This document shows positions 9,932 to 61,231 of a stretch of DNA of 64,000 nt, in pieces. Position 1 is the stretch's first letter. Every line of letters starts with the position of its first letter. The notes under the pieces were generated by a model. The model ran no database searches, had not been told where the DNA came from, and worked only from the letters and a program-made list of their open reading frames with translations. Origin of the DNA: an uncultured Acidobacteriota bacterium (GTDB lineage: Bacteria; Acidobacteriota; Vicinamibacteria; Vicinamibacterales; CAVVIG01); assembly GCA_963773035.1 (NCBI GenBank), contig CAVYZX010000038.1:320234-384233 (forward strand). The letters run 5' to 3'. The position numbers and the translations under genes are program-made.

Positions 9932-9959
9932 AGGTGTCTCGTGAGTCGTTCTGGCGAGT

Positions 9960-27049: not shown

Positions 27050-27097
27050 CGCGGAGCGGGCGCTGGGTATACCATTGGGGCACTTCCACCGACGCTC

Positions 27098-28984: not shown

Positions 28985-29058
28985 GAACCACAAAGCTCAC
29001 AAAGGCCACAAAGCTACTCTAGGGTTGTTCCTAGTGTTCTTCGTGTTCTTTGTGGTTC
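28985..29058. repeat. composite intergenic element: inverted arms of short-period repeats (CACAAAG / CTTTGTG)
   Basis: The left arm gaaccacaaagctcacaaaggccacaaag faces the right arm gttcttcgtgttctttgtggttc. It lies between the DUF1800 stop and the DUF1501 start. Confidence 0.75.
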
Positions 29059-29091
29059 CTCGAAGAGGTGCCTCCATCGAGGGACTCAATC

Positions 29092-37348: not shown

Positions 37349-39358
37349 CTCTCCGGCGAGTTTTCTCTGAGCTTCGTCCTCGTGGAAGACCCTTTCGAAC
37401 TCAGGGGCGACGCCGATGAACGCGTCGACCACTGCCGGATCGAAGTGTGTGCCTTTGCACGAAACGATGAAGTTCACGGTGTCGTCGTGGCCTCGAGATT
37501 GCCGATAGACGTTTCGCGTGACGGCGGCGTCGTAAACGTCCACGAGCGCCATCACTCGTCCCGGAATCGGAATGTCCGTGCCCCTCAAGCCCTCGGGATA
37601 CCCCGTACCATCCCATCGTTCGTGATGTGTGTAGACGATGTCTTTGGCCAGCGTGAGGATCGTGTCGTCGGGGACGCCTGCCTGTTGTTCAGCTTTTAGG
37701 ATGACGTCACGGCCGTGAACTGGATGCTTCCGCATCTCAGCGAGCTCCTCGGGAGTCAGGGCGCCTGGCTTGTTGAGAATGCGATCGGGCACGCCGACCT
37801 TGCCGATGTCATGGAGCGGCGCGAGGCTCGACAGCAGGTCGATCCGCTCTGGCGTCAGATACTCGCGGAATCTCGGATGCGTCGCCAGTTGCTGGGCCAA
37901 TAGCTTCGCGTACAACTGCGTCCGGCGCGAATGACGACCCGTTTCCGGATCTCTGACTTCTGTCAACGACAGCAGCGACTGCACCATCAGGCGCTGCGCT
38001 GTCGACTTCTCTTGTCCGGCGAGATCGGCCCGCTGACGTTCGATCGTGACCCGGGCTCGCGTCATGACGGTGAGCGCCAAGACCACGCCGGCGGACGGAA
38101 ACAGGGGAGAAACGAAAAGGCCGTTGGCCGATAGCAACCAGAGAGCTCCCCACCACAACGTGACAAACGTGCCGGCTCCGGCGATCGTTCCAAGCAGGAG
38201 TCCCCCTCTTGCCACGATCAGAGAGAGCGCGACACCCAGAACGAGCGTGATCTGGCTTTCGAGCGCCGAGCCGACCGCGTGGCGCCGGATGAAGTCCTTT
38301 CGAAGAAGATTGTCGGCGACAGTGGCATGGACCTCGACGCCCGCAAACAGCGTGTCGAGCGGTGTGGCGACGACCTCTCTCGTGCCGAGCGCGGTCGTTC
38401 CGACGAAGACGATCTTGTCCTTCACGCTGCCAGGCGGCAACTGACCGCTGAGCACGTCGGCTGCCGACAAATAGGGGAACGTCCGCTTGCGTCCGCGATA
38501 CCGGACCAGCAAATTGCTCTTCCCGTCCACGGGCACGATCCGGTCGTCGAGAATCAAATGTGCCGTGTTGATGTTGGAGACCCGGAGCGCCGTGTAGCGG
38601 GTGCCCGTCACGGCGGAGACTGCGGCAAGACCGAGCCCAGGATAGGCGCGTCCATCGAGCTGGATCACGAGGGGCACTCGTCTCAGAATGCCGTCCGGAT
38701 CCGGAGCGGCGTTCAGGAAACCGGATGCTCCAGCTGCCTGTGACAGTTCCGGAAGGTTGCAGACGGCGCCGGTTGCGTGAAAGAACGCCGCGTCGCTTTC
38801 CTCCCGCGACTGCACGGCAAGACCTACGGGATGAAGCACGCAGCCGCCCGGCGCGCTGGCAGCCGGGTCGAACGTCATCGCGTAGCCGAGGATCACACGG
38901 CCCTGGTGGAGTGTCTCCGTCAGCGTCGAGTCGGAAGTGGCTGTAGACGGCTTCGAGACCGTGGCGCGGGGCTTTAGCCCCGCGTCCTGCGCCACCTGGG
39001 GCTCTACCTCCGCGAGCCGCGAATCATCGTAGCGATCTCGTTCGGCAAAGATGATGTCGAGTGCGACGGTTGCCGCGCCCAGATCGCGCAGGTTTGCGAT
39101 CAACCGGCCGACCAGGTCGCGGCGCCACGGCCATTGACCAACGGTCGACAGGCTGCGTTCGTCGACGTCGACGATGACGACTTGTCCGGACGGCGGTCTT
39201 GTTGGGCACCAGCGAAGCAGGAGATCGTACACGCCATTGTCGAACCTGGCGATGAACGAGGGGCGATAAAGAGCCAGGACCGCAACGATGATGGTCGGTA
39301 CTAGGCCGCACAGGAAGGTGATGCGACGAACGGTCGAATGATGGTCGTGCGAGGCCAA
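37343..39358 (-). CDS. CHASE2 sensor / HD-GYP phosphodiesterase
   Basis: 671 aa. CHASE2 block VVIVDVDERSLSTVGQWPWRRDLVGRLIANLRDLGAATVALDIIFAE, three C-terminal CHASE2 TM helices, then HD-GYP (LHDIGKVGVPDRIL..., HHERWDGTGYPEGL). Confidence 0.85.
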   Translation of the reverse strand: MASHDHHSTVRRITFLCGLVPTIIVAVLALYRPSFIARFDNGVYDLLLRWCPTRPPSGQVVIVDVDERSLSTVGQWPWRRDLVGRLIANLRDLGAATVALDIIFAERDRYDDSRLAEVEPQVAQDAGLKPRATVSKPSTATSDSTLTETLHQGRVILGYAMTFDPAASAPGGCVLHPVGLAVQSREESDAAFFHATGAVCNLPELSQAAGASGFLNAAPDPDGILRRVPLVIQLDGRAYPGLGLAAVSAVTGTRYTALRVSNINTAHLILDDRIVPVDGKSNLLVRYRGRKRTFPYLSAADVLSGQLPPGSVKDKIVFVGTTALGTREVVATPLDTLFAGVEVHATVADNLLRKDFIRRHAVGSALESQITLVLGVALSLIVARGGLLLGTIAGAGTFVTLWWGALWLLSANGLFVSPLFPSAGVVLALTVMTRARVTIERQRADLAGQEKSTAQRLMVQSLLSLTEVRDPETGRHSRRTQLYAKLLAQQLATHPRFREYLTPERIDLLSSLAPLHDIGKVGVPDRILNKPGALTPEELAEMRKHPVHGRDVILKAEQQAGVPDDTILTLAKDIVYTHHERWDGTGYPEGLRGTDIPIPGRVMALVDVYDAAVTRNVYRQSRGHDDTVNFIVSCKGTHFDPAVVDAFIGVAPEFERVFHEDEAQRKLAGES

Positions 39359-39366
39359 CCCGTCGA

Positions 39367-40020
39367 TTACCTGACCGCAATCTCGACGCGGCGATTGCGC
39401 GGCTCCAGCGTCTCGTCGGGAGTGCGAATCAACAGATCCCGTTCGCCGTGCGACATGACCTCGAGGGCGTCGGCGCTGAGCCCCGCGTTCACGAGCAGAT
39501 TTCGAATGGTGGTGGCCCGCTTGAGGCCCAGCTCGAAATTCGCCTGGGTCGTTCCCGTCGTATCCGTGTGTCCGACGACAACAACGTCGGGGACGACTCG
39601 TTCGGTGACGGCCTTCAGGATCTCCGGGACGAGAGCTCGAGACTCTTCGGTCAGCTCGTCGGACTCGAATCGGAAATGCAGAGTAAAGCGTCTAGGTGCC
39701 GGCGGCAGCGCCGCAAGCGCGTCGCCAAAGAGTCGATCGACCTCGCCCTCAGCCAGTGTGGTCACCTCGCCGGGAGGTCCGTCGCCGATCCGAGTGGAGT
39801 GGCGGCCCGCGACGAGATCCACGCCCCCGGCTGAATTCGAGACGCGGGCGCGCCCAACCACGCCGCTCTCTGCGTCGGGCAGCAACACAATGGTTTCAGT
39901 GATGACTGGGGCTGTGGGCGGCGTTGCGACGGGTTGCTTGGCTGCGCAGGCTGTGATCAGCCACGCTGCCGCGATGGTTACGAGCAGGAGTCGAATTCGC
40001 GGCAGCGGCAGCTGAGTCAT
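39367..40020 (-). CDS. OmpA-family lipoprotein
   Basis: Lipobox-like WLITAC. C-terminal OmpA peptidoglycan-binding block VVVVGHTDTTGTTQANFELGLKRATTIRNLL...NRRVEIAV. ATG 40020 overlaps the upstream stop (TGATG). Confidence 0.85.
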   Translation of the reverse strand: MTQLPLPRIRLLLVTIAAAWLITACAAKQPVATPPTAPVITETIVLLPDAESGVVGRARVSNSAGGVDLVAGRHSTRIGDGPPGEVTTLAEGEVDRLFGDALAALPPAPRRFTLHFRFESDELTEESRALVPEILKAVTERVVPDVVVVGHTDTTGTTQANFELGLKRATTIRNLLVNAGLSADALEVMSHGERDLLIRTPDETLEPRNRRVEIAVR

Positions 40021-40472
40021 CAAGGTTCGACGCGTACGGCCAGACTCGTCCCGCGAACGCCGACGATGGCGGCGGGCGTTTCGAGCCGGATCGAATCGGG
40101 CGCGAGCTTGGCAATTTGCCCGGAAACATAGGCCGCCACGCCGCGCACGATGTTGAAAACGAAACCGAGACGCCCGTCGGCAGGCGCGTAAACGAAGCGA
40201 TCGATCCGCGCTTCACTGTTTGGTCCCAGCGAAACCCGCGTATCGTCCTTCAACGTGACGCCAATCCGGCCGTCGGCTCCCGTTCGGAGCCCGTCGGTCT
40301 CGAACACCACCTGGCCGAGCTCGGCGGGAATCGTGGCACTTTGCCGAAGGATAAAGGCGGACCCGGACAAAACCTTGATCCGGCCCACCGCTGCCGTCTC
40401 CTGACCCCACACGGGTGCGGAACCGGCGAGAACGAGGACGACGACGCCAAGCGCGAATCGTGGATTAGTCAT
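40020..40472 (-). CDS. FecR-domain protein (secreted)
   Basis: 150 aa with a signal peptide. FecR-like block GRIKVLSGSAFILRQS...VFETDGLRTGADGRIGVTLKDDTRVSLGPNSEARIDRF. Confidence 0.8.
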   Translation of the reverse strand: MTNPRFALGVVVLVLAGSAPVWGQETAAVGRIKVLSGSAFILRQSATIPAELGQVVFETDGLRTGADGRIGVTLKDDTRVSLGPNSEARIDRFVYAPADGRLGFVFNIVRGVAAYVSGQIAKLAPDSIRLETPAAIVGVRGTSLAVRVEP

Positions 40473-41164: not shown

Positions 41165-43684
41165 CTACTCGATTCGCAATGCGGTGGTCGGCTCGAGACG
41201 TGTTGCGCGCTGCGCCGGGACGATGGACGCGACCAGCGCAACGATCGCGAGGACGGCGACCATCGCGATGAGCATCACGGGATCGCGCGCGTCGGTGCGC
41301 ACCACATTGTTCTGCAACAGGCGACCGACAGCGAGTGACGCCGGCAGGCCGACCGCGAGCCCGCCAACCACGACCCAGGCGCTGGTCTTCAAGAATAGCC
41401 AGCGCACATGTCTGGCCTGCGCCCCGAGCGCCATTCTGACCGCGATCTCCTGCGTCCGCCGTCTCACGGCGTACGCCAGCGCCGAATAGAGGCCCACCCC
41501 GGAAAGGACGAGCGCCAGGCCGCTGATCTTCGCGAACTGCGACTCCAGCCCGGTCCCTCTCGAGCGATCGCGCAGCTCGTCCAGCGTTCTCGCCACGCCA
41601 AGCGCGAGATCGGGATCGATCGCGTGCGCCGCCTGGCGGGCCGCCGACACGACCCGGGCAGACCCACCGGAGCCGCGCACGATCAACGTGACCGCAGCTG
41701 GCGCCTCAGCCCGAAACGGCAGATACACCACCGGCACCGCGTCCTCCTGACCCTGCCGAATGTCGGGAGACACGCCGACGATCGTCACGCGAACCGGCGG
41801 CGCGGGGCCTTCGGCCTCTCTCAGGTAAGTCCGTTGGGCGGTTGGCGGCCGGAGCTCGAGGTGATGGCCGATCGGACTCCCGGCGCCGAGGTACACGTCG
41901 GCGAATCGGTGATTCACGATCGCCGCCTCGTGCCCGAGAGTCCCGTGCAACTCGGAGAAGGACTCGCCGAGGACGAGACCGCGAACGACGGTGTGAAAGT
42001 AGGCGGGCTCCACGACCAGGGTCATGACGTCCGGGGGCGGATCGCTCGTGGGCTGTCCATCCACGGCGGTCAGCCTGCGCCTGCCAGCCGACGAGAAGGG
42101 CGCCGCGCTCGCGACGGCGCTCGCCGTAATCTCGGGAACCGCCAGCAACCGATCGCGCAGCTGCTGATGGAAGGCGACCCGCTGCTCGGGCGTCGCGTAC
42201 GTCTGCAGCGGGAGTCGAATGAACGTCGTCACCGCATCCGACGTCTGCACATTGCGGTCAAGGGCATAGGCCTTGTAAAACGCCTTGCCCGTCAGACCGG
42301 CGCCGCTCAGGAGCGCCAGCGTCAAGGCAAACTGCCCGACGAGCAGCGCGTTGGTCCAACGCCGCATCTTCGGCGTTGCGCTCATGCGTCCGCCTTCTTT
42401 CAGCCCGTCGGCGGTCCCGCGACGCGAGGCATGGAGTGCCGGCGCCAGGCCGAAGAGTCCCGTGGTGAGCATCGCAACGGCGGCAAGCATGCCCAGCAGG
42501 CGGACGTCCATCTTCAGGCGCCAATAGGGCAGCCCGACTTGCGAGGTCGAGAGTTTCAGAGCGAGCCATGAGCCTCCGACGGCCAGGATCCACGCCATGA
42601 GCGCCAACAGCAGGCTCTCGATCAACAGTTGCCGCACGATCCGCCAGCGAGTGGCGCCGATCGCCACGCGGATCGCGATCTCCCGCGATCTCGACGCCCC
42701 GCGTGCCAGCAAGAGATTCGCCAGGTTGGCGGACGCGATGAGCAGGACGAATGCGGCGGCCAGTAGCTGCAGCAGGGTCAGGGAGTCCGTCAGCAACAGC
42801 CCGCCGTTGTACGCCTCATAGAACGAGTTCACCAGAGGCCGAACGTCCTTGTTCGTCTCTGGATACGTGGCGGCGAGGTTCTCCGCGAGGGGCGAGAGCT
42901 CGGTTCGAACGCGGTCGAGATCGATGCCGTCGGGGAGGCGACCGATCATGAGCAGCCCACGGGCCTCACGACGTTGCCGCGTCGATCCCGGCATCTGTGA
43001 TAGCGGCAACCACACATCCGTCGTGTCAACGAAGCGGAAGCCGTCGGGCATGACACCGATGATCGTCGCGGGAGTGGCGCCGTTCACCGACACCTTGCGG
43101 CCCAGAACGTCGCGGCTTGCAGCGTACCGGTTTTTCCAGATGTTGCTGCCGATGATGGCCACGGCTTCGGCGCCAGGACGATCGTCAGCCGCCGAAAAAT
43201 CGCGGCCGATGACGGGCTTGACGCGGAGCACGGTGAACGTTTCGACAGACACATACAGGCCGTCGAACTGTTCGGGAACAGCACCGTCCCGCCCGAGGCT
43301 GATGGTGCTTATCGCAAAAGCGGCCGCCCTCCCGTCGAACACCCGTGAGTCCCGGCGAAAGTCCTCGAAGTCAGGGTAGGACACGCCGCCGTCTCGCCCG
43401 CGTCCATCCAGCGTCCGCACAATCGCGACGCGCTCGGGCCGCTCGAACGGCAGGTCGCGCATGAGCGTGGCGTACGTGAAGATGAACGTCGTGTTCGCCA
43501 CGCCCATCGCCAGTGCGAGGGTGAGGATGGCGCCGACGCTGAACCACCGATCCTTGGCGAGGGTTCGCCACGCAAATCGCAGATCTGCGCCTAAGTCGGC
43601 CAGGGCAGGCGGGCGACGGACGTCGCGGCATTTCTCTTTGACCTGGTCGAGGCCGCCAGACGTCAACCGGATCTGCCGGCGCAC
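41165..43684 (-). CDS. ADOP-family duplicated FtsX/MacB-like permease
   Basis: 839 aa with two MacB-periplasmic-core plus FtsX modules and the conserved LRFAWRTLAKDRWFS start of the mature permease. The in-frame upstream sequence to 43831 encodes a permease-prefix helix but has no canonical start codon. Confidence 0.9.
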   Translation of the reverse strand: MRRQIRLTSGGLDQVKEKCRDVRRPPALADLGADLRFAWRTLAKDRWFSVGAILTLALAMGVANTTFIFTYATLMRDLPFERPERVAIVRTLDGRGRDGGVSYPDFEDFRRDSRVFDGRAAAFAISTISLGRDGAVPEQFDGLYVSVETFTVLRVKPVIGRDFSAADDRPGAEAVAIIGSNIWKNRYAASRDVLGRKVSVNGATPATIIGVMPDGFRFVDTTDVWLPLSQMPGSTRQRREARGLLMIGRLPDGIDLDRVRTELSPLAENLAATYPETNKDVRPLVNSFYEAYNGGLLLTDSLTLLQLLAAAFVLLIASANLANLLLARGASRSREIAIRVAIGATRWRIVRQLLIESLLLALMAWILAVGGSWLALKLSTSQVGLPYWRLKMDVRLLGMLAAVAMLTTGLFGLAPALHASRRGTADGLKEGGRMSATPKMRRWTNALLVGQFALTLALLSGAGLTGKAFYKAYALDRNVQTSDAVTTFIRLPLQTYATPEQRVAFHQQLRDRLLAVPEITASAVASAAPFSSAGRRRLTAVDGQPTSDPPPDVMTLVVEPAYFHTVVRGLVLGESFSELHGTLGHEAAIVNHRFADVYLGAGSPIGHHLELRPPTAQRTYLREAEGPAPPVRVTIVGVSPDIRQGQEDAVPVVYLPFRAEAPAAVTLIVRGSGGSARVVSAARQAAHAIDPDLALGVARTLDELRDRSRGTGLESQFAKISGLALVLSGVGLYSALAYAVRRRTQEIAVRMALGAQARHVRWLFLKTSAWVVVGGLAVGLPASLAVGRLLQNNVVRTDARDPVMLIAMVAVLAIVALVASIVPAQRATRLEPTTALRIE

Positions 43685-44152
43685 GTCGGCTTCGGATTGT
43701 CCGGCGCGGACGCCTTCCGCGACCTCGCGCTCGATGTGGTCGCGCAGCTCCGCATCGAGCTCGGGCTCGAGCGCCCGTCGCAGCGAAACGCCTGGACGGC
43801 CGTGCTCAGCGGTTTGTTGTAGACCCCACGATTACCGCTCAGTCTCCTGCCTTATCAAAACATGTGTTCGCGAAAATGCCGGTTTGACGTTTCCATCTTC
43901 GAAGCGCATGGCTACCGGTTACCGATTTCTTATTACATCGATCGCGTTGATCCACAGTTGTGAACTTTCGTTTCTGACTCTGAGGACTTCAAGCCAGCAC
44001 AGCCGTTGGAAGCTTTCATCGCGGGGCTTGAAATACTTTCGGTTAGAAGTCCTCTATGAAATTGGAAGCCGTGTGTTCGACTGGCACTTCTTCTGCAGCG
44101 CGTCGCTGCTTCGATTTCTTCGTTCGAGTAATTTTGCGCTCGTGTAATACAG

Positions 44153-45958
44153 ATGAGTTCGATCGCGCACCTGGCGGATTTCGATTTCACAGCTGCGCTT
44201 GCCGCTCCTCAATCGGCCAATCCCTGGATGATTCTCCTCCTCGGGAGCATCTCGGGATTGCTGGTCTTCGCGTTCAGCAACGCGCTTCGTGTGTTTCTCG
44301 TCAGGCATCGCGCGCAGAAGGTTGCGCGAACGTCTTCGCGTCTCTGGCCCGCTGCCGCGATCGTCGTCGCTCTGGTCGGCGGCGTGATGGTCGCGAACCT
44401 GTTCCTGGGCCGCATCGAAGTCAACGGTCAGGGCTTGCTGTTTGGCGACGATCTGTTCGTCGCCACCAGGCGTGCGGGATTCCTGCCGAGCTATCCGAGC
44501 ACTCCGAACCACGTCAAGAAGGGCGATCCGATTCTGGTGGTTCGCCGGGATGCCGGTCCCGATGAGATCGCGGCCGCCGAAAATCGGCGGGCCCGGCTGC
44601 GCCACGAGTTCGAGTACATCAAGTCGGACGCGCTCGAAGTCGATCCGCTGGTTCTGCGCGAGTACACGCTCGCGGAAAGCTCGCTGCGGGAGCTCGATGA
44701 ACGTTCGCAGAAGCAGCTCGATGCGCGCGACACGCTGGTTCGCGAGGCACCCCAACAGCGATTGGAGAATGAGGCGCGGCGGCAGGCGCTCGAGAAAGAC
44801 TTTCAAGCGATTGAAGGCGAGCTCGACCAGGTCAAGCTGAGCCTCGAGTCGGCGACCCGTATTTATGAAGCGGGCGAACGCGCGATGGCCAAAGGACTCA
44901 TTCCGCAGGATGAGTTCGAGAAACGCCGGGAGCGCATGAACGTTCTGCGGAGCCGTCAAGAGGAGCTCGTGACCCGAGTTGGCGCGCTTCGAAAGGAACG
45001 GGCCCAGACGACCGACCTCACCTCCACGACGGAAGGCACGTATAGCAATCAGCTCGCACTGCGATCGAACGAAATTTCTGCTCTCAACAGACGGATTGGT
45101 CTCGCCAGGCAGGCCGTCAAAGAGGCGGCTCAGAAGCTGGATGAAGACAAGATCCGTGCCGCGGCCCAGCGCGAGAAGCGGTTGAAGCAGGTCCAGATTC
45201 AGATCGACGAGCTCAATACTCTACTCGACGCCTCCGAAGCGACGTTGAGCGCACGGGCGCCCTGGGACGGCGTCGTCGGCTTCCGCGAGCCGTCGCCCGC
45301 GAGCGTGAGGTCCGATGTCCGCCCGCTGCTGGTGCTGTTTCAGCCTGGGAAGGTGTCGACCCGTATGCAGCTCCCCGCCGCGCATGCGCTGGTCTATCCA
45401 GGCGAAAAGCTCGACATCCGTCTCCGCGCGCTCACACCCGAAGCCGTCAACACGACGATCAGCGGCGAGCTCGTCGAGCGGGTTCCACTCGAGGATGGAA
45501 CGGTGGAGCTGCGCATCACATGTCATCCGCCGCCCAGCGCAGTCCGCGATCTGGCGATGGGGAACACCATCCCGATCAGTGTCGTGGTGCGCCGGCCCGA
45601 TCTTCTCGCGCGGCTTGGACTGAGCTGGCCCGTGGCGTTCGGGTTCATTTGTCTGATCGCTGTGTGCATCAGCGAATTGCGGCTCCGATTCAAGCAGCGG
45701 CGGGCTGCTCGCGCATCGGTGGGTGATCGGCTCGCGCACGGATTGCCATCGCGTTCGAAACGCATCGATTGGGGAGGGGACCCCAACGAGTTCCAGGAAT
45801 TTATCGTCGGCGTGGGGCTCGTCTCGAGGAAGGTCTCAGCAGTAGGTCGGCGGATGCCTCCGCTGACCTCGTCGGCGACAACGGGGCGCCCTGTAGCTCC
45901 GGAGGGTTTCGGGGCGGCCGAAGCTCCCTTGTCGTCGTACCACGACGTCACCACCTAG
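44153..45958 (+). CDS. HlyD/membrane-fusion-like coiled-coil membrane protein (atypical, extra C-terminal TM)
   Basis: 601 aa. Two N-terminal TM helices, the KKGDPILVV hairpin motif, about 250 aa of heptad-rich Glu/Arg/Leu coiled coil, a beta-rich segment (ARAPWDGVVGF), then the TM helix LSWPVAFGFICLIAVCISEL. Confidence 0.7.
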   Translation: MSSIAHLADFDFTAALAAPQSANPWMILLLGSISGLLVFAFSNALRVFLVRHRAQKVARTSSRLWPAAAIVVALVGGVMVANLFLGRIEVNGQGLLFGDDLFVATRRAGFLPSYPSTPNHVKKGDPILVVRRDAGPDEIAAAENRRARLRHEFEYIKSDALEVDPLVLREYTLAESSLRELDERSQKQLDARDTLVREAPQQRLENEARRQALEKDFQAIEGELDQVKLSLESATRIYEAGERAMAKGLIPQDEFEKRRERMNVLRSRQEELVTRVGALRKERAQTTDLTSTTEGTYSNQLALRSNEISALNRRIGLARQAVKEAAQKLDEDKIRAAAQREKRLKQVQIQIDELNTLLDASEATLSARAPWDGVVGFREPSPASVRSDVRPLLVLFQPGKVSTRMQLPAAHALVYPGEKLDIRLRALTPEAVNTTISGELVERVPLEDGTVELRITCHPPPSAVRDLAMGNTIPISVVVRRPDLLARLGLSWPVAFGFICLIAVCISELRLRFKQRRAARASVGDRLAHGLPSRSKRIDWGGDPNEFQEFIVGVGLVSRKVSAVGRRMPPLTSSATTGRPVAPEGFGAAEAPLSSYHDVTT

Positions 45959-45987
45959 TTTTTCGTTCGAGGTTTGAGAGTTACCAG

Positions 45988-47391
45988 ATGGATCGCATCG
46001 CTGATCGCTCCGATCGTTTCGACAGGGGTGGCAGACGGCCTCGTTCTCCTGCGCTGTTTCTCGTGACCGGGACGTTCGGAGCGCTCGTGCTGGTGACCGC
46101 GCAGCTTTACTACTTCGTCAAGCTGCAATCGGTGATTGCCGGCTTATCGGGCGCCGGGTTCTGGTTGAGCGTGGCGTTTGGCACCTCGTTCCTGCTTTGC
46201 TGCTGGGTCGCCGCCGTCCGGTACGTGTTGATGATGCTCTGCGCGTACTTCGGGTGGGCAGCCTCGGTGCGGCCAGTCTCGCGTCCCATCCGTTGGCCGC
46301 GCGTGTCGGTCCTGATTCCCGCCTACAACGAAGCCGGTCGTATCGCCGCGACGCTGCGTTCGATCCTCAGCCTCGACTACCCGGATTTTCAGGTCATCGT
46401 CGTGGACGATGGTTCTGAAGACGAGACGCTCGACGCCGCTGCCGAGTTTGCACGGAGTGACGGCCGCGTGCGCGTCCTTCGCAAGCCCAATGGCGGAAAG
46501 AGCTCCGCTCTCAATCTGGGCTTCCATGAATCGTCAGGCGACCTGGTGTTCTGTGTTGACGCCGATTCGCAGCTCGAGCCGAGCTCGCTGCGAAGGATCG
46601 TGCCGCTGTTCGAGGATCCGCGCGTTGGTGCGGTGGCGGGTCAAGTGCGCGTCCGCAATCGCGGCACGCTGGTGTCGAAGCTGCAGGCGCTCGAATACGC
46701 GCTGATGAACGGCATGCCGCGGCTGGCGCAGAGCAATTTCGCCCAGGTGCTCATTGCGCCAGGTCCGATTGCCGTCTTCCGGCGCAACCTGCTCGAGGAG
46801 ATTTGGAAACGCTGGGGCTCGGCAGAGCCCCACAGCGCCAGGGCTGGGGCGGTGGCCGGTCCCTGGGAAAGCGATACCTTCGCGGAGGATTGCGACGTCA
46901 CGCTGAACGCGCTGCTTCTCAGATACCGCGTGGTGTTTCAGCCGGCTGCGATTTCCTTCACGACTTCGCCCGCCGGCCTGTTTCCTCTGTTGAACCAGCG
47001 TTACCGCTGGATCCGCGGCAACCTTCAGGCCATCAAGAAATGTTGGCGCCGCTGGCATGCCCTGCCGAGTGCTCCCGGCGCTCTGCCTCTCTGGCTCAGC
47101 CTCTTCATCGTCGAGACGGTTGTCTGGCCGGCAGTGAATATCTACGGCCTCGTCTTGTTCGTGGCGCTCGTCGCCACGGTCGGGCAGATCGGAAACCTGT
47201 GGCCCTGGTATTTGATTCTGCTCGGCATCGAGGTGAACGCCGCCGCTTTTTCGATCCGCGCCGTCGGGGAAAAGGCCGTGTTGATCGTCTTGATGCCGAT
47301 CTTCCGAAGCGTTTACGGCGTGATTCTGGATGTGAATACCCTCTGCGCCGTGTGCGCCGAGCTGATGCGTCAACGAATGCGATGGGCATGA
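45988..47391 (+). CDS. processive family-2 glycosyltransferase (PgaC/NodC/chitin-synthase-like)
   Basis: ATG 45988, with the ORF open from 45769. TM helices lie on both sides of the GT-A domain. Blocks VSVLIPAYNE, VVDDGSED, CVDADS and QRYRWIRG (QxxRW). Confidence 0.9.
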   Translation: MDRIADRSDRFDRGGRRPRSPALFLVTGTFGALVLVTAQLYYFVKLQSVIAGLSGAGFWLSVAFGTSFLLCCWVAAVRYVLMMLCAYFGWAASVRPVSRPIRWPRVSVLIPAYNEAGRIAATLRSILSLDYPDFQVIVVDDGSEDETLDAAAEFARSDGRVRVLRKPNGGKSSALNLGFHESSGDLVFCVDADSQLEPSSLRRIVPLFEDPRVGAVAGQVRVRNRGTLVSKLQALEYALMNGMPRLAQSNFAQVLIAPGPIAVFRRNLLEEIWKRWGSAEPHSARAGAVAGPWESDTFAEDCDVTLNALLLRYRVVFQPAAISFTTSPAGLFPLLNQRYRWIRGNLQAIKKCWRRWHALPSAPGALPLWLSLFIVETVVWPAVNIYGLVLFVALVATVGQIGNLWPWYLILLGIEVNAAAFSIRAVGEKAVLIVLMPIFRSVYGVILDVNTLCAVCAELMRQRMRWA

Positions 47392-48485
47392 ACAAATACA
47401 CATTCCGCACACTGATCCTGACCCTGCTTGCCGCTGCCTCGATCTGGGCCTGCAGCGCCGCCGATGCGGCGGATCCGTCGCAGTCGGCTCTTCCCGCCAG
47501 GTCGTTCAGACGACCAGTCATCTGCTACGTCGAGACGCTGTTCGGCGGAGCCACGGCAGCCGATCTCGATTTCCGTCCGTGCACGCACGTCGTCGAGGCT
47601 TTTGTCGTCGTGGATCCGTCGGGCGCCGTCAGGCCAGTCAACGGGCTGCCTCGACGCGACATCATCTCGGCCGCCCGGAGCGTTGGGGCTCGCGTGCTCG
47701 TCTCGGTTGGTGGGGCGACAGTGCCAGGCTCTACGTTCTCGGCCATCGCCAGCGATCAGACACGTCTCGAGAGTTTTGCGAACGCACTCGCCGATTTCGT
47801 CGCGCAGTCGGGCTACGACGGTGTCGATCTCGACTGGGAATTCCCGTCGCCTCTCGAATCGAGGCAACACCTTACATTGGTCCGCGCCGTGAGGTCGGCA
47901 TTGTTTTCGCGAGCTGGTGTGCAACCGGCTCAGCCGCGGCGGCGTCGCAGTCCGGCCGACACGCCCGCGCCGACGATCACGGTTCCCGTCGCCGCGTACT
48001 GGATTCCGAGCTACAACCTGGCGGCCCTTCACGATGAAGTGGATTACGTCATTCTGATGGGATACGACTTTCGGAATCCGGCGCTGGGTCCGTGGATGAA
48101 CGACGCGAAGCTCTGGCCGGTCAATGCGGTCACGCCAATCGAGGGGTCGGTACGTGGCGCGGCCTCCGAAATGATTCGAAGCGGCCTTGGGCACGACAAG
48201 CTGGTGATCGCCCTTCCGTTCTATTCCAGCGCGTGGGAGCCCTGGGTAGACGTTCGCGCGCGCGCCTCCTCTGCGGGCCCGCTGCACCCGCTATTCCTGG
48301 AAAAGCTGCTCGGCGACGTATGGATCACAGATCCTGAGGCGCTCGAGAAGAAGATCACGGCGGCTGTATTCGGCTCGCAGATCAATGGCGGAAATGCGGC
48401 AGGCATCGGGGTGTGGCAACTGGGACACCAAGGCAAGTTCCGGGACCTGAGCGACGCGATTCTTCGCGTGATGGCCAGACCTTGA
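47388..48485 (+). CDS. secreted GH18 glycoside hydrolase (chitinase-like)
   Basis: ATG 47388 overlaps the GT2 stop (ATGA). Signal peptide MNKYTFRTLILTLLAAASIWAC. Intact catalytic motif YDGVDLDWEFP (DxxDxDxE). Confidence 0.85.
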   Translation: MNKYTFRTLILTLLAAASIWACSAADAADPSQSALPARSFRRPVICYVETLFGGATAADLDFRPCTHVVEAFVVVDPSGAVRPVNGLPRRDIISAARSVGARVLVSVGGATVPGSTFSAIASDQTRLESFANALADFVAQSGYDGVDLDWEFPSPLESRQHLTLVRAVRSALFSRAGVQPAQPRRRRSPADTPAPTITVPVAAYWIPSYNLAALHDEVDYVILMGYDFRNPALGPWMNDAKLWPVNAVTPIEGSVRGAASEMIRSGLGHDKLVIALPFYSSAWEPWVDVRARASSAGPLHPLFLEKLLGDVWITDPEALEKKITAAVFGSQINGGNAAGIGVWQLGHQGKFRDLSDAILRVMARP

Positions 48486-48508: not shown

Positions 48509-48919
48509 CTACGCAGGGCGATCGGCCATTTCGAGGATGCGTTTCCATTCGGCATCGGATACAGGCATCACCGACAACCGTGAGATTCTGACGAGCGGGA
48601 AATCCTTGAAGGCCGAATCGGCCTTGATCTCCGCCAGCCTCACTGGTCGCGGCAGCTTCTTCGCCGGTGCGACGTCGACGACGGATTGTTTACCACTCTT
48701 GTCGCTCGGATCCGCGTACGCGTTGCCGAGCGCGGTGGCAATTCCCACGACCGACTTTTCGTCACCCGTGTGATAGTAGAAGATCCGATCGCCCTTCTTC
48801 ACCGATCGGAGATGTTTCTGGGCCAGGGGATTCTTCACGCCGCTCCAGACAGCCTTTTTGTCTTTGACGAGCTCGTCGTAGCCGTAGTGCGTCGGTTCTT
48901 CTTTGAACAGCCAATTCAT
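48509..48919 (-). CDS. EVE (PUA-like) domain protein
   Basis: 136 aa. MNWLFKEEPTHYGYDELVKDKKAVWSGVKNPLAQKHLRSVKKGDRIFYYHTG is typical of EVE domains. Confidence 0.85.
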   Translation of the reverse strand: MNWLFKEEPTHYGYDELVKDKKAVWSGVKNPLAQKHLRSVKKGDRIFYYHTGDEKSVVGIATALGNAYADPSDKSGKQSVVDVAPAKKLPRPVRLAEIKADSAFKDFPLVRISRLSVMPVSDAEWKRILEMADRPA

Positions 48920-48943: not shown

Positions 48944-49630
48944 GTGAATTCGGGACTACGTGATCGCATTGGGCGCGGCGTTCGTGTCTTGCTCGTCGGT
49001 ATCAATCCTGGCGTCCGCTCAGCAGCGATCGGTCACCATTTCGCCGGCTACTCGAACCGCTTCTGGAAGCTGTTGTACGACGCGTCCCTCGTACCCGAAC
49101 CGATCGGCACCGAGGACGATTACCGGCTGCCCGAGTGGGGGTTCGGCATCACCAACCTCATTTCGCGTCCGACTCCAGGTATCGATACGTTGAGGTTCGA
49201 AGAATATGAGGCGGGCCTTCGAGTGTTACGCCGCAAGGTTCGACGATGGAAGCCGAAGATCGTGGCTTTTGTGGGTGTCACTCTATTTCGATTCGTCGCT
49301 GTGCGGCCGGCTTCGGCCCGGGTCGGAGTTGGGCTTCAGGTTGAGCGTTTCGAAGGCGCTCGCGTGTTCGTGCTACCGAACCCCAGTGGCCGCAACGCGA
49401 ACTTCTCGTACGCGGAGATGCTCGCCGCGTATCGATCCCTTGCGACTTTCCTGCACGATGCAACGCATCAGAACGCACCACACCGCGATCAGCCCCCACG
49501 AATGCAAAGAGTAGATAGTGACCGCGGTCCACGGCGTGAACGCCGCTCGACCCATCAACAGAGGCACCGGCCAGACGAACGCCAGCCAGGGAATAAGAAC
49601 GCTCGGCGTTCGAAGCGCCACCGCGGTTAG
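48944..49630 (+). CDS. mug: G/U mismatch-specific uracil-DNA glycosylase (Mug family) with an aberrant C-terminal tail
   Basis: Blocks LLVGINPG, GHHFAGYSNRFW, GITNL and LPNPSGRN. The last 55 or so codons (from HDATHQ...) are Arg-rich and overlap the convergent gene. Confidence 0.8.
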   Translation: MNSGLRDRIGRGVRVLLVGINPGVRSAAIGHHFAGYSNRFWKLLYDASLVPEPIGTEDDYRLPEWGFGITNLISRPTPGIDTLRFEEYEAGLRVLRRKVRRWKPKIVAFVGVTLFRFVAVRPASARVGVGLQVERFEGARVFVLPNPSGRNANFSYAEMLAAYRSLATFLHDATHQNAPHRDQPPRMQRVDSDRGPRRERRSTHQQRHRPDERQPGNKNARRSKRHRG

Positions 49631-50554
49631 AGATCCGGCAAGCAAGGGAAGGTAGTAGAGCCAGCCGAGCGGGTTGACGAGTAACGAAAGCACACCGCAG
49701 GCGAGCCACTCGGTGTCCACATCGTCGACCTTGCGGATCACGACGATCGTCGCCACCACGAAAAACAGCGTCAACGGCAGCCAGGCGTGCCATCCGATAT
49801 CGGCACGGGCGAGCAACCCGGCGATCGACGCGTTGAGCGGATGTTCGAACCACGAAACCTGGCGGCCGACTTCGATCCAGCGCGAGAAACTGTGGGCGCC
49901 TGCCACGGCCACGCCGACGGCCACAGACATTAGAGCCGCGACGATAGACCAGAAGATCGTCGTCCACTGACGACGGAGCAGCGCGACCAGAAGGAAGCAG
50001 CCCATGAAAGGTTTGAGGCTCACCAAGACGCCGAGAAGAGATCCGGCGAGCTCCCGGTTGTCCCGGCGTTGTGCCGACCACGCGATGGTGCACAGCAACG
50101 CGAAGATACCGAGGGGTTGCCCCTCTTCGAAGCCGAACACGATGCCTGTGCTGACGCCGGTGATGGCGATGGCGGCCATGAACGCCATGTTCGAGCGAGG
50201 CAGATCCAGCTCACGCCAGATGATGACCGCCGCGCCGATTGCCGCCGCGACGTTGATCGCGAGCCAAACTTTGACGGCTACATCCGGCGGGAACCACGTC
50301 AAAGGGGCAAAGGCGACGATGAACTGGGGAGGGTTCAGATTGGGAGCCACTCGCGCAGTTGCATACAGATCCCCACCGGTCCTCCATGCCATCCCGCTCT
50401 CGTAGAAGACTCGAAAGTCGATTCCCCAGGCCCGTGTCCCTGCGTTTCTGAGCGCGCTGACAATGAGGCCCAAACCCAGGCCTGCGGCAGCGCCGAATGC
50501 CCAGAAACGGATCCTGGATCGATCGAGAAAGGCGGGTCGCGGGTCGGCGCTCAT
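49373..50554 (-). CDS. polytopic membrane glycosyltransferase (DUF2029/GT87-like)
   Basis: ATG 50554 overlaps the upstream stop (ATGA). Block WGIDFRVFYESGMAWRTGGDLY, followed by about 10 TM helices. Confidence 0.7.
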   Translation of the reverse strand: MSADPRPAFLDRSRIRFWAFGAAAGLGLGLIVSALRNAGTRAWGIDFRVFYESGMAWRTGGDLYATARVAPNLNPPQFIVAFAPLTWFPPDVAVKVWLAINVAAAIGAAVIIWRELDLPRSNMAFMAAIAITGVSTGIVFGFEEGQPLGIFALLCTIAWSAQRRDNRELAGSLLGVLVSLKPFMGCFLLVALLRRQWTTIFWSIVAALMSVAVGVAVAGAHSFSRWIEVGRQVSWFEHPLNASIAGLLARADIGWHAWLPLTLFFVVATIVVIRKVDDVDTEWLACGVLSLLVNPLGWLYYLPLLAGSLTAVALRTPSVLIPWLAFVWPVPLLMGRAAFTPWTAVTIYSLHSWGLIAVWCVLMRCIVQESRKGSIRGEHLRVREVRVAATGVR

Positions 50555-52086
50555 CGGCTGAACACCTGCCACGTCATGTCCGCGTACCGAGTGTGCCAGC
50601 CGTCACTCAACAGGCGATTGGCAAGGGGTGTTCCGGTCCTGGTCAACGCGCATTCAATCTGGTACTGCTCAAAGAGGGGCGCGTAGTCACCGGAGAGCTC
50701 CGCGTGAATGTGCGCGTCAATCAGCGAAGCCGGATACGGATCCAGTCGGCTATCCAGAAAGACCTTTCGTTCGGGAACGAACCAGATCAAGTACCCCCCA
50801 TCGTCATAGTTGTTGTAAAGCGGCCCGGGGCACGCACGCACGGCCGAGATGGCCTCGGAAGGGAACGGATGCCACTGCAGTCGCGGAATCTGGGAGGACC
50901 ATGCGTACGCGACCATGGCAACGGAGGCTACGCTCGCGGCGGTCAGCAAGCAGAAGTTGAACGTCGGCCGCTCACGACGTTCTGTAAGAGATCCACGCGA
51001 CGGAAAGCGCCAGTCGAGAAGCGATGCAAGCGCAGGAGCTGCAAGGAGCAGGAACACAGGAACATTCCTGGCTGAGCCGAGTGCAAATGGAAGAAGGGCC
51101 AGGGCACCCACGACCGCCGTGGCATGAACCGAGCCTCGCTCCACAGCGTTGATGGCGGTTCCGCGCACCTGTTGCGAAAGCCAACGCACACCGAGCACCG
51201 CGACAGCCATCGCGATCAGCCAGAAAGGAAGCAGAGGCAAGTCGCCAAGGCCCGGGGGTTTCCATTCGAGAACCTGGTGGTGACGCAGCCGTGCGAGCGT
51301 TGGCGGAATCTCGGTCCATAACGTCCATCCGAGCGGGGTCATCGTCGTGAGGACGACACACAAGCCAAGGACGACGAGACAGTCTGTCGGGATGCGGCGC
51401 GTCTCGAGGGTGATCTGGGCCGTCGCAGCGGTCATGAATACGATGCCGAGGACGACCCCTCCGTGGAGGTTGGCCCAGATCAGAAAGAGGAACGGAAGAC
51501 ATCGGTACAACCGCCGCTCGAGGAGGTAACAAGTACACGCGACGAGAACCAGAGTGAACAGTTGCGGGCGCAACGACCAAGCCATTGCGGAGGGAATTGC
51601 GGCGAGTGACACGACGACCAATTTCCGCGTCGGACTGCTTTTGACCAAATGCCAGACGATGAACCACGTTGTGAGGACTAGAACCGCGGAGGCGGCTGTC
51701 AACAGCGGCATGCCGCCGAGTTGGTGGAGCGCGTAGAAAAGAATCTCTGACAGCCATTCGCGATTCGGCCAATATCCGCCATTTACGGTGAACGAGAAGC
51801 TGTCGCTCAAGCGAACGGCGCCAGACTTCCAGATTTCCTCCCCGGTCCGAAGCAGCCACCACGTGTCGCTTTGCGCCGGCATCAGGCAGGCGGTGCAGCC
51901 GAGTGCGAGAAACAGAAGGGAAGCACTGAGACGATCGAAGGTGATCCAGTCGGCCCACGCGTGAAACCTGTTCAGGCTCGATTCTGCGGGACCGGTCCGC
52001 TCGACTTCTGCGCCGAACCGACCTACAGGAGGTGCAAATCTGTGAGCCGGGTTCCCGCGATCGACGAACGGCGTGGAAGGTCGCAC
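50551..52086 (-). CDS. polytopic membrane protein, GT-C-like (function tentative)
   Basis: 511 aa with about 12 TM helices and a C-terminal soluble domain (NNYDDGGYLIWFVPERKVFLDSRLDPYP). I cannot name a family with confidence. Confidence 0.6.
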   Translation of the reverse strand: MRPSTPFVDRGNPAHRFAPPVGRFGAEVERTGPAESSLNRFHAWADWITFDRLSASLLFLALGCTACLMPAQSDTWWLLRTGEEIWKSGAVRLSDSFSFTVNGGYWPNREWLSEILFYALHQLGGMPLLTAASAVLVLTTWFIVWHLVKSSPTRKLVVVSLAAIPSAMAWSLRPQLFTLVLVACTCYLLERRLYRCLPFLFLIWANLHGGVVLGIVFMTAATAQITLETRRIPTDCLVVLGLCVVLTTMTPLGWTLWTEIPPTLARLRHHQVLEWKPPGLGDLPLLPFWLIAMAVAVLGVRWLSQQVRGTAINAVERGSVHATAVVGALALLPFALGSARNVPVFLLLAAPALASLLDWRFPSRGSLTERRERPTFNFCLLTAASVASVAMVAYAWSSQIPRLQWHPFPSEAISAVRACPGPLYNNYDDGGYLIWFVPERKVFLDSRLDPYPASLIDAHIHAELSGDYAPLFEQYQIECALTRTGTPLANRLLSDGWHTRYADMTWQVFSR

Positions 52087-59766: not shown

Positions 59767-60003
59767 GTCCCTACCTCCTGTGGCAGCACCAGCGCCGCCG
59801 CACTCCCAAAAGGGCTGTAAACGCGCGGCTTACCCCAGCAAGAACATTGCCTCATCGGCTTCGTTGCGCTCGGCGCAGTCGTGAGTGACGCCATGCGGGT
59901 TCCCAACAAGACTGTAGGTTTGGCCGCTAAGCGTCTACAAAGTTGTCGGAAGTGACAAGGGCTGCCACGCGGCTGGCCCTTGCGAGAGGTTACAGGCTAC
60001 CAC

Positions 60004-61146: not shown

Positions 61147-61231
61147 CTGGGATCTCCTCCGAAGAATTATAGGCGACAAAGACAGTCCCGGCGGTTGACT
61201 CTCTCTTGCCCGCAGTGGAAGATGACGGCCT

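Follow-up and report, generated by a model that had tools for sequence, protein, structure and literature searches.

A candidate synthase, adaptor and hydrolase module for a GlcNAc polymer in an uncultured acidobacterium, with counterparts in other bacterial phyla

Chitin is usually regarded as a polymer of eukaryotes, with bacteria acting only as its degraders, and the bacterial products of N-acetylglucosamine (GlcNAc) polymerization that are known to us are poly-N-acetylglucosamine (PNAG) and the oligomers of Nod factors. A general route by which a bacterium can make and secrete a polysaccharide is already known, in which a synthase of glycosyltransferase family 2 (GT2) works with an HlyD-type periplasmic adaptor and the outer-membrane channel TolC, and this route is established or proposed for cellulose and for mixed-linkage glucan. 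Here we examine a stretch of 64,000 nucleotides (hereafter the window) from an uncultured Acidobacteriota bacterium of the Vicinamibacterales (assembly GCA_963773035.1, contig CAVYZX010000038.1, positions 320,234 to 384,233 of the forward strand), in which an adaptor-like protein (gene 1), a GT2 synthase (gene 2) and a hydrolase of glycoside hydrolase family 18 (GH18; gene 3) are encoded side by side. These three genes probably constitute a synthase-dependent module for the synthesis and export of a GlcNAc polymer. What is new in comparison with the known systems is a synthase of the GlcNAc group that carries no c-di-GMP domain, a hydrolase from GH18, an adaptor subfamily with a C-terminal transmembrane (TM) helix and tail, and a set of chitin-oriented accessory proteins.

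In Sinorhizobium meliloti, production of a mixed-linkage beta-glucan depends on bgsBA and on TolC, for which a tripartite synthase-adaptor-TolC complex has been proposed, with tolC being required and encoded elsewhere in the genome (PMC13438883). The gene order is the same as in the window, an HlyD-type adaptor gene followed by a membrane GT2 gene (our reference locus L100), and the BgsB-type adaptor can be aligned to the profile of the gene 1 family (hhalign E 2.7e-5, 16% identity) across the hairpin tip, the second lipoyl half and the barrel. However, the product there is a glucan, the synthase has 664 aa and ends in a c-di-GMP-binding domain, whereas gene 2 has 467 aa and groups with GlcNAc transferases, and no glycoside hydrolase is linked to bgsBA. 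The BgsB-type protein is a conventional adaptor of 410 aa with one N-terminal anchor, in contrast to the 601 aa of gene 1 with two N-terminal TM helices, one C-terminal TM helix and a cytoplasmic tail.

A second precedent is the cellulose system of cyanobacteria (Thermosynechococcus), where BcsA/XcsA and BcsZ act with HlyD-like and TolC-like proteins that replace BcsB and BcsC (Maeda et al. 2018, reviewed in PMC8892547). The same four-part logic is seen in two of the relatives described below (L004 and L089), which have adaptor, GT2, GH18 and outer-membrane efflux protein (OEP) genes, but the cyanobacterial system makes cellulose with a PilZ-bearing synthase, uses BcsZ rather than a GH18 enzyme and draws on another adaptor family. 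Moreover, BcsZ belongs to GH8, and the cyanobacterial components are scattered in the genome instead of forming one operon. For alginate, the GT2 Alg8 depends on Alg44, an inner-membrane protein with a MexA/HlyD-like periplasmic part and a regulatory cytoplasmic part (PMC8892547). Unlike gene 1, Alg44 carries a PilZ domain at its N-terminus and has a single TM helix, the product is polymannuronate, and the degrading enzyme is a lyase. Export of alginate proceeds through AlgK/AlgE and not through TolC.

The bacterial genes that have been called chitin synthases are of a different kind. Those of Dickeya, Pectobacterium and others, about a dozen Proteobacteria in all, are division-1 chitin synthases acquired from eukaryotes by horizontal transfer; a chitin exopolysaccharide has been proposed for them but not shown, and some lie beside porin or efflux genes (PMC5122149). 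Gene 2, in contrast, belongs to a compact bacterial family of the size of PgaC and NodC, has a modest match to Chitin_synth_2 and is accompanied by an adaptor family of its own.

All three genes lie on the plus strand of the window. Gene 1 (44153..45958, 601 aa) was delimited by its open reading frame (ORF) and translation and characterized with a structure model and a family profile; gene 2 (45988..47391, 467 aa) follows after 29 nt that separate the TAG of the one from the ATG of the other; and gene 3 (47388..48485, 365 aa) overlaps the end of gene 2 in an ATGA stop/start. A reading of the letters without database searches (the sequence-only reading) had described this arrangement and had also listed the D, DAD and QxxRW motifs and flanking TM helices of gene 2, the signal peptide and DGVDLDWE motif of gene 3, and the TM helices, KKGDPILVV motif, coiled coil and beta-rich domain of gene 1. 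The arrangement was confirmed, and all of the motifs were located again.

We collected 13 independent loci with a GT2 from the clade of gene 2 (38-81% identity to the GT2 of the window; confirmed with hidden Markov models, HMMs). According to their source labels, they derive from Gemmatimonadota (L004/L005), Candidatus Krumholzibacteria (L089), Myxococcales (L006), Halieaceae (L091), an uncultured gammaproteobacterial metagenome-assembled genome (MAG; L003, identical with L007) and several metagenome contigs without a taxon label. A gene of the gene 1 family lies directly upstream of the GT2 and on the same strand at every one of the 13 loci, a pairing that is not due to chance, and a GH18 gene adjoins the GT2 at nine (the window, L001, the P0003 contig, L004, L006, L089, L091, L093 and L094). 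Orthologous GH18 enzymes of 43-67% identity are encoded directly 3′ of the GT2, often with overlapping or nearly overlapping stops and starts. The flanking genes differ in every lineage, so the association belongs to the module itself rather than to a genome region that the lineages have in common; in L091 and L094, for example, GT2s of 72% identity are surrounded by unrelated genes. Other GT2 subfamilies, at no more than 41% identity and represented among the matches listed by 80 metagenome loci, had no neighbour of the gene 1, GH18 or OEP type and serve as a negative control. When GTDB genomes were scanned with peptide patterns of gene 1, a single locus was recovered, from the same MAG as L003. 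The genes thus recur together across phyla, as the sequence-only reading had asked of relatives.

The additional genes at these loci point to an outer-membrane channel and to chitin. A TolC-family OEP closes a co-directional adaptor-GT2-GH18-OEP module in L004/L005 and in L089, and an OEP is part of the conserved neighbouring block in L091 and L094, such that an OEP is genetically linked in 4-5 of the 13 loci. This agrees with the export across the periplasm that had been predicted from the HlyD-like partner. Another OEP, following the GH18 gene of L093, was rejected as a dedicated component, since it does not match the profile of the module-type OEPs and is followed by genes for a CzcB-like adaptor and an RND pump; heading an operon of this different type, it is ambiguous and may be unrelated. 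L091 and L094 further share a protein with LPMO_10 (lytic polysaccharide monooxygenase, LPMO), GbpA_2 and two CBM_5_12 domains, which we take to be the architecture of chitin-active AA10 proteins of the GbpA type. A protein with a carbohydrate-binding module (CBM) of family CBM_2 is encoded divergently upstream in L003 and L092, and a CE4 polysaccharide deacetylase is present in L090. The expectation that a GH18 partner signals a GlcNAc-based, chitin-like product is strengthened by these accessory genes.

Several loci hold sequences that we note in their own right. The GT2 of L001 (11558-12981, on a 371-kb contig whose gene 1 homologue is 63% identical) is called as two ORFs of 247 and 227 aa, and reflects either a frameshift through assembly error or a pseudogene. 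In L006, a 1-kb gap without a called gene follows the GT2 (about 9440-10440, plus strand) and scores 352 bits against the GH18 profile, marking an uncalled GH18 directly 3′ of the GT2, with another GH18 encoded on the minus strand at 10455-11525. Proteins of 139-168 aa without a Pfam match are encoded between the GH18 and LPMO genes of L091 (10329-10835, minus strand) and L094 (8243-8662, minus strand), a 338-aa protein without a Pfam match follows the OEP of L089 (12254-13270, plus strand), and a 342-aa protein labelled DUF8021 by precomputed annotation occupies the GH18 position in L003 (9552-10580, plus strand). It is possible that such small and medium-sized proteins, recurring in the extended modules, are further components.

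Gene 2 is, by its catalytic motifs and modelled fold, a membrane-integrated GT2 of the kind seen in processive synthase-translocases. It carries VVDDGSED (residues 138-145), CVDADS (189-194), AEDCD (299-303) and QRYRW (337-341), and all 56 homologues compared retain the D, DxD, ED and Q(Q/R)xRW motifs unchanged. Pfam searches return Glycos_transf_2 (3.6e-40), Glyco_tranf_2_3, Glyco_trans_2_3 and Chitin_synth_2 (2.4e-11; 43 bits, above its cut-off). An AlphaFold2 (AF2) model built on the 56 homologues (pLDDT 92.6, pTM 0.91) places a GT-A domain at about 104-325 between two N-terminal TM helices (22-50 and 55-94) and three C-terminal ones (366-398, 402-426 and 430-459), with an interface helix (331-358) that bears QRYRW. 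In Foldseek searches of the PDB, Xenopus HAS1 (5.7e-19) and the Chlorella-virus hyaluronan synthase (HAS) came first, with TM-scores of 0.6-0.66 over about 430-510 aligned columns, followed by PcManGT, BcsA, chitin synthases and plant CesA. This full-length likeness to HAS, BcsA and chitin synthase is what the sequence-only reading had expected of a processive enzyme with a membrane channel, as opposed to a non-processive GT2 that has no such architecture. The last TM helix is directly followed by the C-terminus at residue 467, and the protein thus does not have the trait of a synthase that is itself a c-di-GMP receptor, although the search that returned no PilZ-like match is a weak one.

By sequence, the nearest characterized relatives of gene 2 are PgaC, NodC and HasA, and the enzyme belongs to this neighbourhood of GlcNAc-transferring synthases. 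All three use UDP-GlcNAc as donor, HasA with UDP-GlcA in addition. We built a small neighbor-joining (NJ) tree with PgaC of E. coli and Ralstonia, NodC of Rhizobium, HasA of B. anthracis and BcsA of E. coli as references. The eleven GT2s linked to a gene 1 homologue formed one clade (100% bootstrap), apart from PgaC (100%) and from NodC plus HasA (100%), and weakly (67%) sister to the latter. Identification of gene 2 as either PgaC or NodC was rejected on the basis of this tree and of the NCBIfam cut-offs: the best model, PgaC_IcaA (TIGR03937), gives 181.6 bits (E 2.3e-53) with a cut-off of 422.3, and NodC (TIGR04242) gives 124 bits with a cut-off of 550. JGI names several homologues PgaC, and these automatic labels are probably wrong. 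We also rejected the idea of reading the linkage from the motifs of the GT2, since these are mixed, GQV and PGP resembling NodC and HAS and EDxD and QRxRWxRG resembling PgaC and BcsA. Among plasmids, the GT2 is best matched by the C-terminal part of a fused 1123-aa protein of Sulfitobacter faviae (NZ_CP139727.1; L008 5850-11743, 34.6% identity), which is followed by a gene for a DUF3131 protein. As a candidate fusion of adaptor and GT2 this glycosyltransferase was rejected, because its N-terminal 717 aa are unlike the gene 1 family (hhalign probability 0.3%).

The linkage cannot be read from the synthase. The partners converge: GH18, whose requirement for an N-acetyl group at subsite -1 is discussed below, the AA10/GbpA/CBM5_12 and CBM2 proteins, and CE4 together make a chitin-like beta-1,4 product the preferred choice. 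That the product is specifically beta-1,4 chitin is nevertheless a tentative assignment, and we lean slightly towards doubting it. A different product that has to be considered is PNAG, or a PNAG-like beta-1,6-GlcNAc polymer, for which gene 1 would replace PgaD and PgaA and the GH18 would replace the hydrolase domain of PgaB. PgaC_IcaA is indeed the nearest curated HMM, ahead of NodC, the size and the topology of two plus three TM helices are similar, the EDxD and QRxRWxxG motifs are PgaC-like, homologues bear the PgaC name, and the CE4 deacetylase beside the gene pair in L090 fits PNAG as well as it fits chitin. However, the score lies far under the equivalog cut-off, the clade is separate from PgaC with full bootstrap support, and phmmer (E<=1) detected no homologue of the PgaA porin, of PgaB (CE4 plus GH153) or of PgaD in the operon or the window; the partner of the synthase is adaptor-like, and the hydrolase is a GH18. 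In addition, GH18 enzymes are not known to us to cleave beta-1,6-GlcNAc, and AA10 LPMO/GbpA/CBM5_12 and CBM2 proteins bind or act on crystalline beta-1,4 polymers. The hydrolase activity of PNAG operons resides in the C-terminal domain of PgaB, and the known PNAG hydrolases belong to GH153 and GH20 (PMC5933820). Taken together, we consider a PNAG-like product distinctly unlikely. A genuine pgaBCD set on the megaplasmid of Ralstonia solanacearum (L095 6237-8858) is followed by convergent genes for a TolC-family protein and an HlyD-family type I secretion adaptor, a pair that is probably an unrelated type I secretion system.

It is also conceivable that the GT2 makes short chito-oligosaccharides in the manner of NodC, which would leave through the adaptor (and TolC) to act as a signal or primer and whose length would be set by the GH18. 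Of all reference synthases, NodC is the most similar to gene 2 in sequence (36% identity over the GT domain), GQ(V/L) and (S/C)GP motifs are common to gene 2, NodC and HAS, the tree gives weak support to a sister position with NodC plus HasA, the 467 aa and two plus three TM helices correspond to NodC in size and topology, and adaptor/TolC systems often move small molecules. Yet the NodC cut-off is missed by a wide span, the ED motif and those flanking QxxRW differ, there is no nodA/nodB-type partner and no NodB homologue in the window, and full-length structural likeness is highest to HAS, which forms a channel. Furthermore, the LPMO and CBM partners suggest an insoluble polymer, and for small oligomers there would be no need of a special 12-nm adaptor family evolving jointly with the synthase. 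To our knowledge, an adaptor, TolC or GH18 partner is not found with either NodC or HAS. Oligomers as the end product therefore strike us as quite improbable.

The prominence of hyaluronan synthases among the structural matches raises yet another candidate product, a GlcNAc-containing heteropolymer akin to hyaluronan, heparosan or chitin-glucan. Hyaluronan synthases alternate two sugars with a single GT2 domain, HasA is near the clade in the tree, and the motifs of gene 2 fit no family of homopolymer synthases cleanly. Genes for a UDP-sugar dehydrogenase or epimerase were found neither in nor beside the operon, be it here or in the relatives inspected, whereas bacterial has operons typically include hasB or hasC, as in L097, where galU and a UDP-glucose dehydrogenase gene follow hasA. 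Moreover, the GH18, AA10, CBM5/12 and CE4 partners fit plain chitin best, and a heteropolymer is in our opinion very unlikely.

Gene 3 is a GH18 enzyme whose catalytic apparatus, judged from its motifs, is complete. The motifs are SVGG (106-109), DGVDLDWE (144-151), MGYD (224-227) and GVWQLG (341-346, with W343), and D149, E151, G108/G109 and W343 do not vary between gene 3 and the operon-linked GH18s of five other loci, six sequences in all. The Pfam model for the family (PF00704) is matched with 105.6 bits (cut-off 29.6), and 117 GH18 sequences of the PDB match at E<=1e-3, the best being the chitinase 5gzu (2.7e-21). A hydrophobic N-terminus resembling a signal peptide, with a possible lipobox (IWAC), predicts secretion; the lipobox-like Cys is present in gene 3 and in the GH18 of L004 and is not conserved. 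Enzymes of GH18 work by substrate-assisted catalysis, for which the sugar at subsite -1 must carry a 2-acetamido group.

This enzyme could instead act elsewhere, either by cutting peptidoglycan strands to let the machine or its fibre pass, or as a chitin-scavenging enzyme that is linked to the other genes by chance. Some GH18 proteins do act on peptidoglycan, such as spore-cortex enzymes, GH18 is absent from some of the loci, and the second GH18 of L006 is on the opposite strand. Against this, orthologous GH18s occur directly 3′ of the GT2 in distant phyla with unrelated flanks, and the closest solved structures are chitinases. Hence, it seems to us very improbable that gene 3 acts on something other than the polymer, and we favor an enzyme that acts on the product of gene 2.

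Gene 1 is a divergent and atypical periplasmic adaptor (membrane fusion protein) of the HlyD/EmrA type, as its sequence family and predicted structure indicate. This identification is based on the modelled hairpin, the Foldseek matches, the alignment of the family profile with EmrA and the HlyD matches across the family. The N-terminal membrane hairpin (44228..44410) consists of TM1 (residues 26-50), a basic cytoplasmic loop (49-63, with 5 K/R) and TM2 (64-86). Two split lipoyl-like motifs, HVKKGDPILVVRRD (120-133) and APWDGVVGFR (369-378), then surround a helical hairpin at 136-359 with its tip at KGLIP (247-251), a segment (44510..45286) that was delimited with the model and with alignments to EmrA and the BgsB-type adaptor. 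The KKGDPILVV seen earlier sits inside the first of these motifs, within HVKKGDPILVV. A beta-rich domain, the likely equivalent of the adaptor beta-barrel, spans residues ~379-482 (45287..45598; strands at 394-480, pLDDT 60-77), and a C-terminal TM helix (490-509) leads into a cytoplasmic tail (510-601; 45620..45955) with the conserved DWGGDPNEFQEFIVGVG (539-555), 7 K/R standing directly after the helix. Hydropathy and charge thus predict an acidic N-terminus outside, TM1, a basic loop, TM2, the periplasmic adaptor domain, TM3 and a basic tail in the cytoplasm. The tail motif DWGGDPxEFQEF is kept in close homologues, TM3 is present in most members of the family, and all of 48 diverse members have R51 in the loop, with G35 and V47 in TM1 conserved almost as strictly.

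The AF2 model of gene 1 was built from five sequences only and has a mean pLDDT of 66, with the hairpin of ~225 aa, turning at KGLIP, at pLDDT 85-95, short strands flanking it and the beta-rich domain following with moderate confidence. The top 13 Foldseek matches in the PDB are all adaptors, EmrA (4tko, 7.3e-11) being the best and MacA (of MacAB-TolC), EmrA (of EmrAB-TolC), AcrA, MexA and ZneB coming next. EmrA is also the top match of the family profile among PDB sequences (E=0.0033), and the hairpin tip and APWDGVVGFR are paired with KGLIP and APFDGVV of EmrA in this alignment. Gene 1 alone has no Pfam adaptor match at E<0.1, where coiled-coil noise is all that appears, and its best NCBIfam model is TIGR00999, a CzcB adaptor model (E=0.014). 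Word-indexed searches, with the single sequence or a profile, gave 6-8 proteins only, since coiled-coil words swamp the candidates, whereas with an exhaustive HMM search the family grew to 177 clusters at 50% identity, of which 129 have E<1e-10; most of the proteins are 600-750 aa long. HlyD_3 is matched by 19 of the 48 members scanned with Pfam (best 7.4e-7) and HlyD_D23 by three, and these matches fall in the part that corresponds to the beta-rich region of gene 1. The earlier description of gene 1 as an atypical membrane-fusion-like protein is thus supported by several kinds of comparison.

With EmrA, HlyD and MacA, gene 1 has in common the split lipoyl motifs, a long hairpin with a KGL(I)P-type tip, a putative beta-barrel and no membrane-proximal domain, and the hallmark of a helical hairpin inserted into a split lipoyl domain is found in its model. 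However, those adaptors serve MFS or ABC partners that move drugs or proteins, and they have one N-terminal TM helix only. Instead of this single anchor and a free periplasmic C-terminus, gene 1 has a pair of TM helices at the N-terminus and another one ahead of a cytoplasmic tail at the C-terminus, and it scores below all curated adaptor HMM thresholds. In one distant member of the family (P0268), what follows the C-terminal TM helix on the cytoplasmic side is a GGDEF domain of the diguanylate-cyclase type (residues 632-776, 46 bits), and a second of the 48 members matches GGDEF at 8.6e-20. A regular-expression search of the 48 sequences did not find the canonical GG(D/E)EF string, and the GGDEF domains may accordingly be degenerate. 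These matches hint that the tail of the family is a regulatory module related to c-di-GMP.

Such features raise the question of whether gene 1 is a conduit at all. It might instead be an inner-membrane co-polymerase, scaffold or regulator similar to BcsB, PgaD, Alg44 or the PCP/Wzz proteins, which stabilizes or gates the synthase while the polymer crosses the outer membrane by another route. TM helices at both ends of a periplasmic domain are PCP-like, the conserved cytoplasmic tail and the GGDEF tail of a distant member suggest regulation, and the conservation of R51, G35 and V47 in the membrane hairpin suggests an interaction at the level of the membrane. An OEP is moreover absent from 8-9 of the 13 loci and from the window, and Alg44 itself pairs an adaptor-like domain with a porin that is not TolC. 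On the other hand, EmrA is the best match by both structure and sequence, and adaptors that dock to TolC are characterized by a long hairpin of this kind. OEP genes are found inside the co-directional module of L004/L005 and L089 and in the conserved block of L091 and L094 with its different flanks, while tolC is unlinked in many genuine tripartite systems and is needed by bgsBA even though it lies outside that operon (PMC13438883). We judge the co-polymerase alternative to be unlikely. As to whether gene 1 is a true duct to TolC, we regard the case as evenly balanced.

If gene 1 is such a duct, the module could operate as follows. The GT2 would polymerize UDP-GlcNAc on the cytoplasmic face of the inner membrane and thread the growing chain through its own TM channel. 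Gene 1 would oligomerize round the synthase, its three TM helices packing against the enzyme in a way comparable to the C-terminal helix of BcsB or to PgaD, and its cytoplasmic tail is a candidate regulatory or synthase-contact element. The hairpin, which at 1.5 A per residue of helix would be roughly 12 nm long, could reach a TolC-family trimer in the outer membrane and complete a continuous duct, like the one proposed for BgsA-BgsB-TolC and for cyanobacterial cellulose. Adaptors such as EmrA and HlyD, which serve an inner-membrane partner without a periplasmic domain, typically have long hairpins and dock to TolC tip-to-tip. The TolC-family channel would be encoded elsewhere in this genome, though within the module in some relatives, and the chain would exit the cell without entering the periplasm. 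The secreted GH18 may then trim, release, clear or recycle the polymer, like BcsZ with cellulose or fungal chitinases with their chitin synthases, and it may be remodelled as well by an LPMO, CBM proteins or a deacetylase in those lineages that have them. The linkage, the polymer length and the TolC dependence of the module are all properties that we infer.

A number of points weigh against this interpretation. A sealed duct between adaptor and TolC would hide the polymer from a periplasmic GH18, and in 3-4 of the 13 loci no GH18 is next to the gene pair. The outer-membrane step is unsupported for the organism itself, as there is no TolC-like gene in its 64-kb window, and the OEP of L093, heading an RND operon, may have no part in the system. 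Gene 1 has no significant adaptor match of its own in Pfam or NCBIfam, its lipoyl and beta domains are modelled with low confidence, and its Foldseek TM-scores are 0.15-0.3, low values such as are expected of an elongated and in part low-confidence model. The extra C-terminal TM helix recalls the topology of a polysaccharide co-polymerase rather than that of a classical adaptor, and the GT2 has mixed motifs and a clade position beside NodC plus HasA that is weak (67%).

Within the window, the three genes are a self-contained, isolated operon. Upstream lies a divergent gene for a duplicated MacB_PCD/FtsX permease of ~840 aa (41165..43684, minus strand), separated from gene 1 by an intergenic region of ~470 bp (43685..44152) that is the presumed promoter site, and downstream an EVE-domain gene (48509..48919, minus strand) is convergent with gene 3. 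A sigma-70 consensus scan found no site in 43685..44152, and promoter and terminator scans gave nothing above chance. As the sequence-only reading had stated, the window holds no TolC-like, PgaB-type or PilZ gene that could be detected. We looked for TolC/OEP homologues with three OEPs from the module, the TolC of Ralstonia and Pfam scans of mid-size ORFs, and also for CE4, NodB, LPMO and CBM2 homologues and for a BcsA-type PilZ; none was found in the 64 kb by these searches, which used single sequences or small profiles, and the negative for PilZ is weak for this reason. The outer-membrane component must hence be encoded elsewhere in the genome, or does not exist.

Some other genes of the window deserve mention. 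A DUF1800 gene (27050-28963, plus strand; 361.7 bits) adjoins a DUF1501 gene (29035-30342, plus strand; 105.6 bits), a pair that has been described as conserved neighbours of the eukaryote-derived bacterial chitin synthase genes (PMC5122149). Lying ~14 kb upstream of the GT2, this pair is not counted as part of the system, and the link may be coincidental. Beyond the permease, 4 kb upstream of the operon, three co-directional genes (37343-40472, minus strand) encode a CHASE2-HD_5/HD fusion, an OmpA-family protein and a FecR-domain protein, the first of which is possibly a c-di-GMP phosphodiesterase of the HD-GYP type. A GT87-family membrane glycosyltransferase, encoded on the other strand 1 kb past the end of the operon (49373-50572, minus strand), is followed by an overlapping ORF of 511 aa without a Pfam match (50551-52086, minus strand), and may represent a second envelope-glycan function nearby. 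Further ORFs of 800-900 aa (9963-12413, minus strand; 57103-59829, minus strand; 61226-63808, plus strand) may be of the same kind as the MacB_PCD/FtsX permease. Duplicated permeases of this ADOP type are typical of Acidobacteriota.

The sequence-only reading knew of no characterized bacterial system with this composition. This stands in so far as we found no description of the gene combination in the full-text literature, a search whose coverage is poor for subscription journals and which is not proof of novelty, but the underlying scheme, in which a GT2 synthase works together with an HlyD-like adaptor and TolC, had already been established for cellulose and mixed-linkage glucan. In its widest form, our proposal is that free-living members of several bacterial phyla, among them the lineage of the window and those of MAGs labelled Gemmatimonadota, Krumholzibacteria, Myxococcales and marine Gammaproteobacteria, natively make true chitin, as fibres of beta-1,4-GlcNAc extruded through a dedicated synthase-adaptor-TolC machine and remodelled by their own GH18, AA10 LPMO, CBM and CE4 proteins, and that this pathway to a chitin or chitosan matrix evolved independently of the eukaryotic chitin synthases, together with a new subfamily of adaptors anchored at both ends. 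We put this forward as a speculation that falls somewhat short of an even bet.

If it is true, a bacterial source would have to be added to the pools of chitin and amino sugars in the environment, both in soil and in the sea. The secretion principle of synthase, adaptor and TolC would be extended to amino-sugar polymers, and a compact cassette of three or four genes would become available for the microbial production of chitin or chitosan. The new adaptor architecture, with its two plus one TM helices, its tail and sometimes a GGDEF domain, could moreover show how an adaptor is coupled to a glycosyltransferase instead of a transporter.

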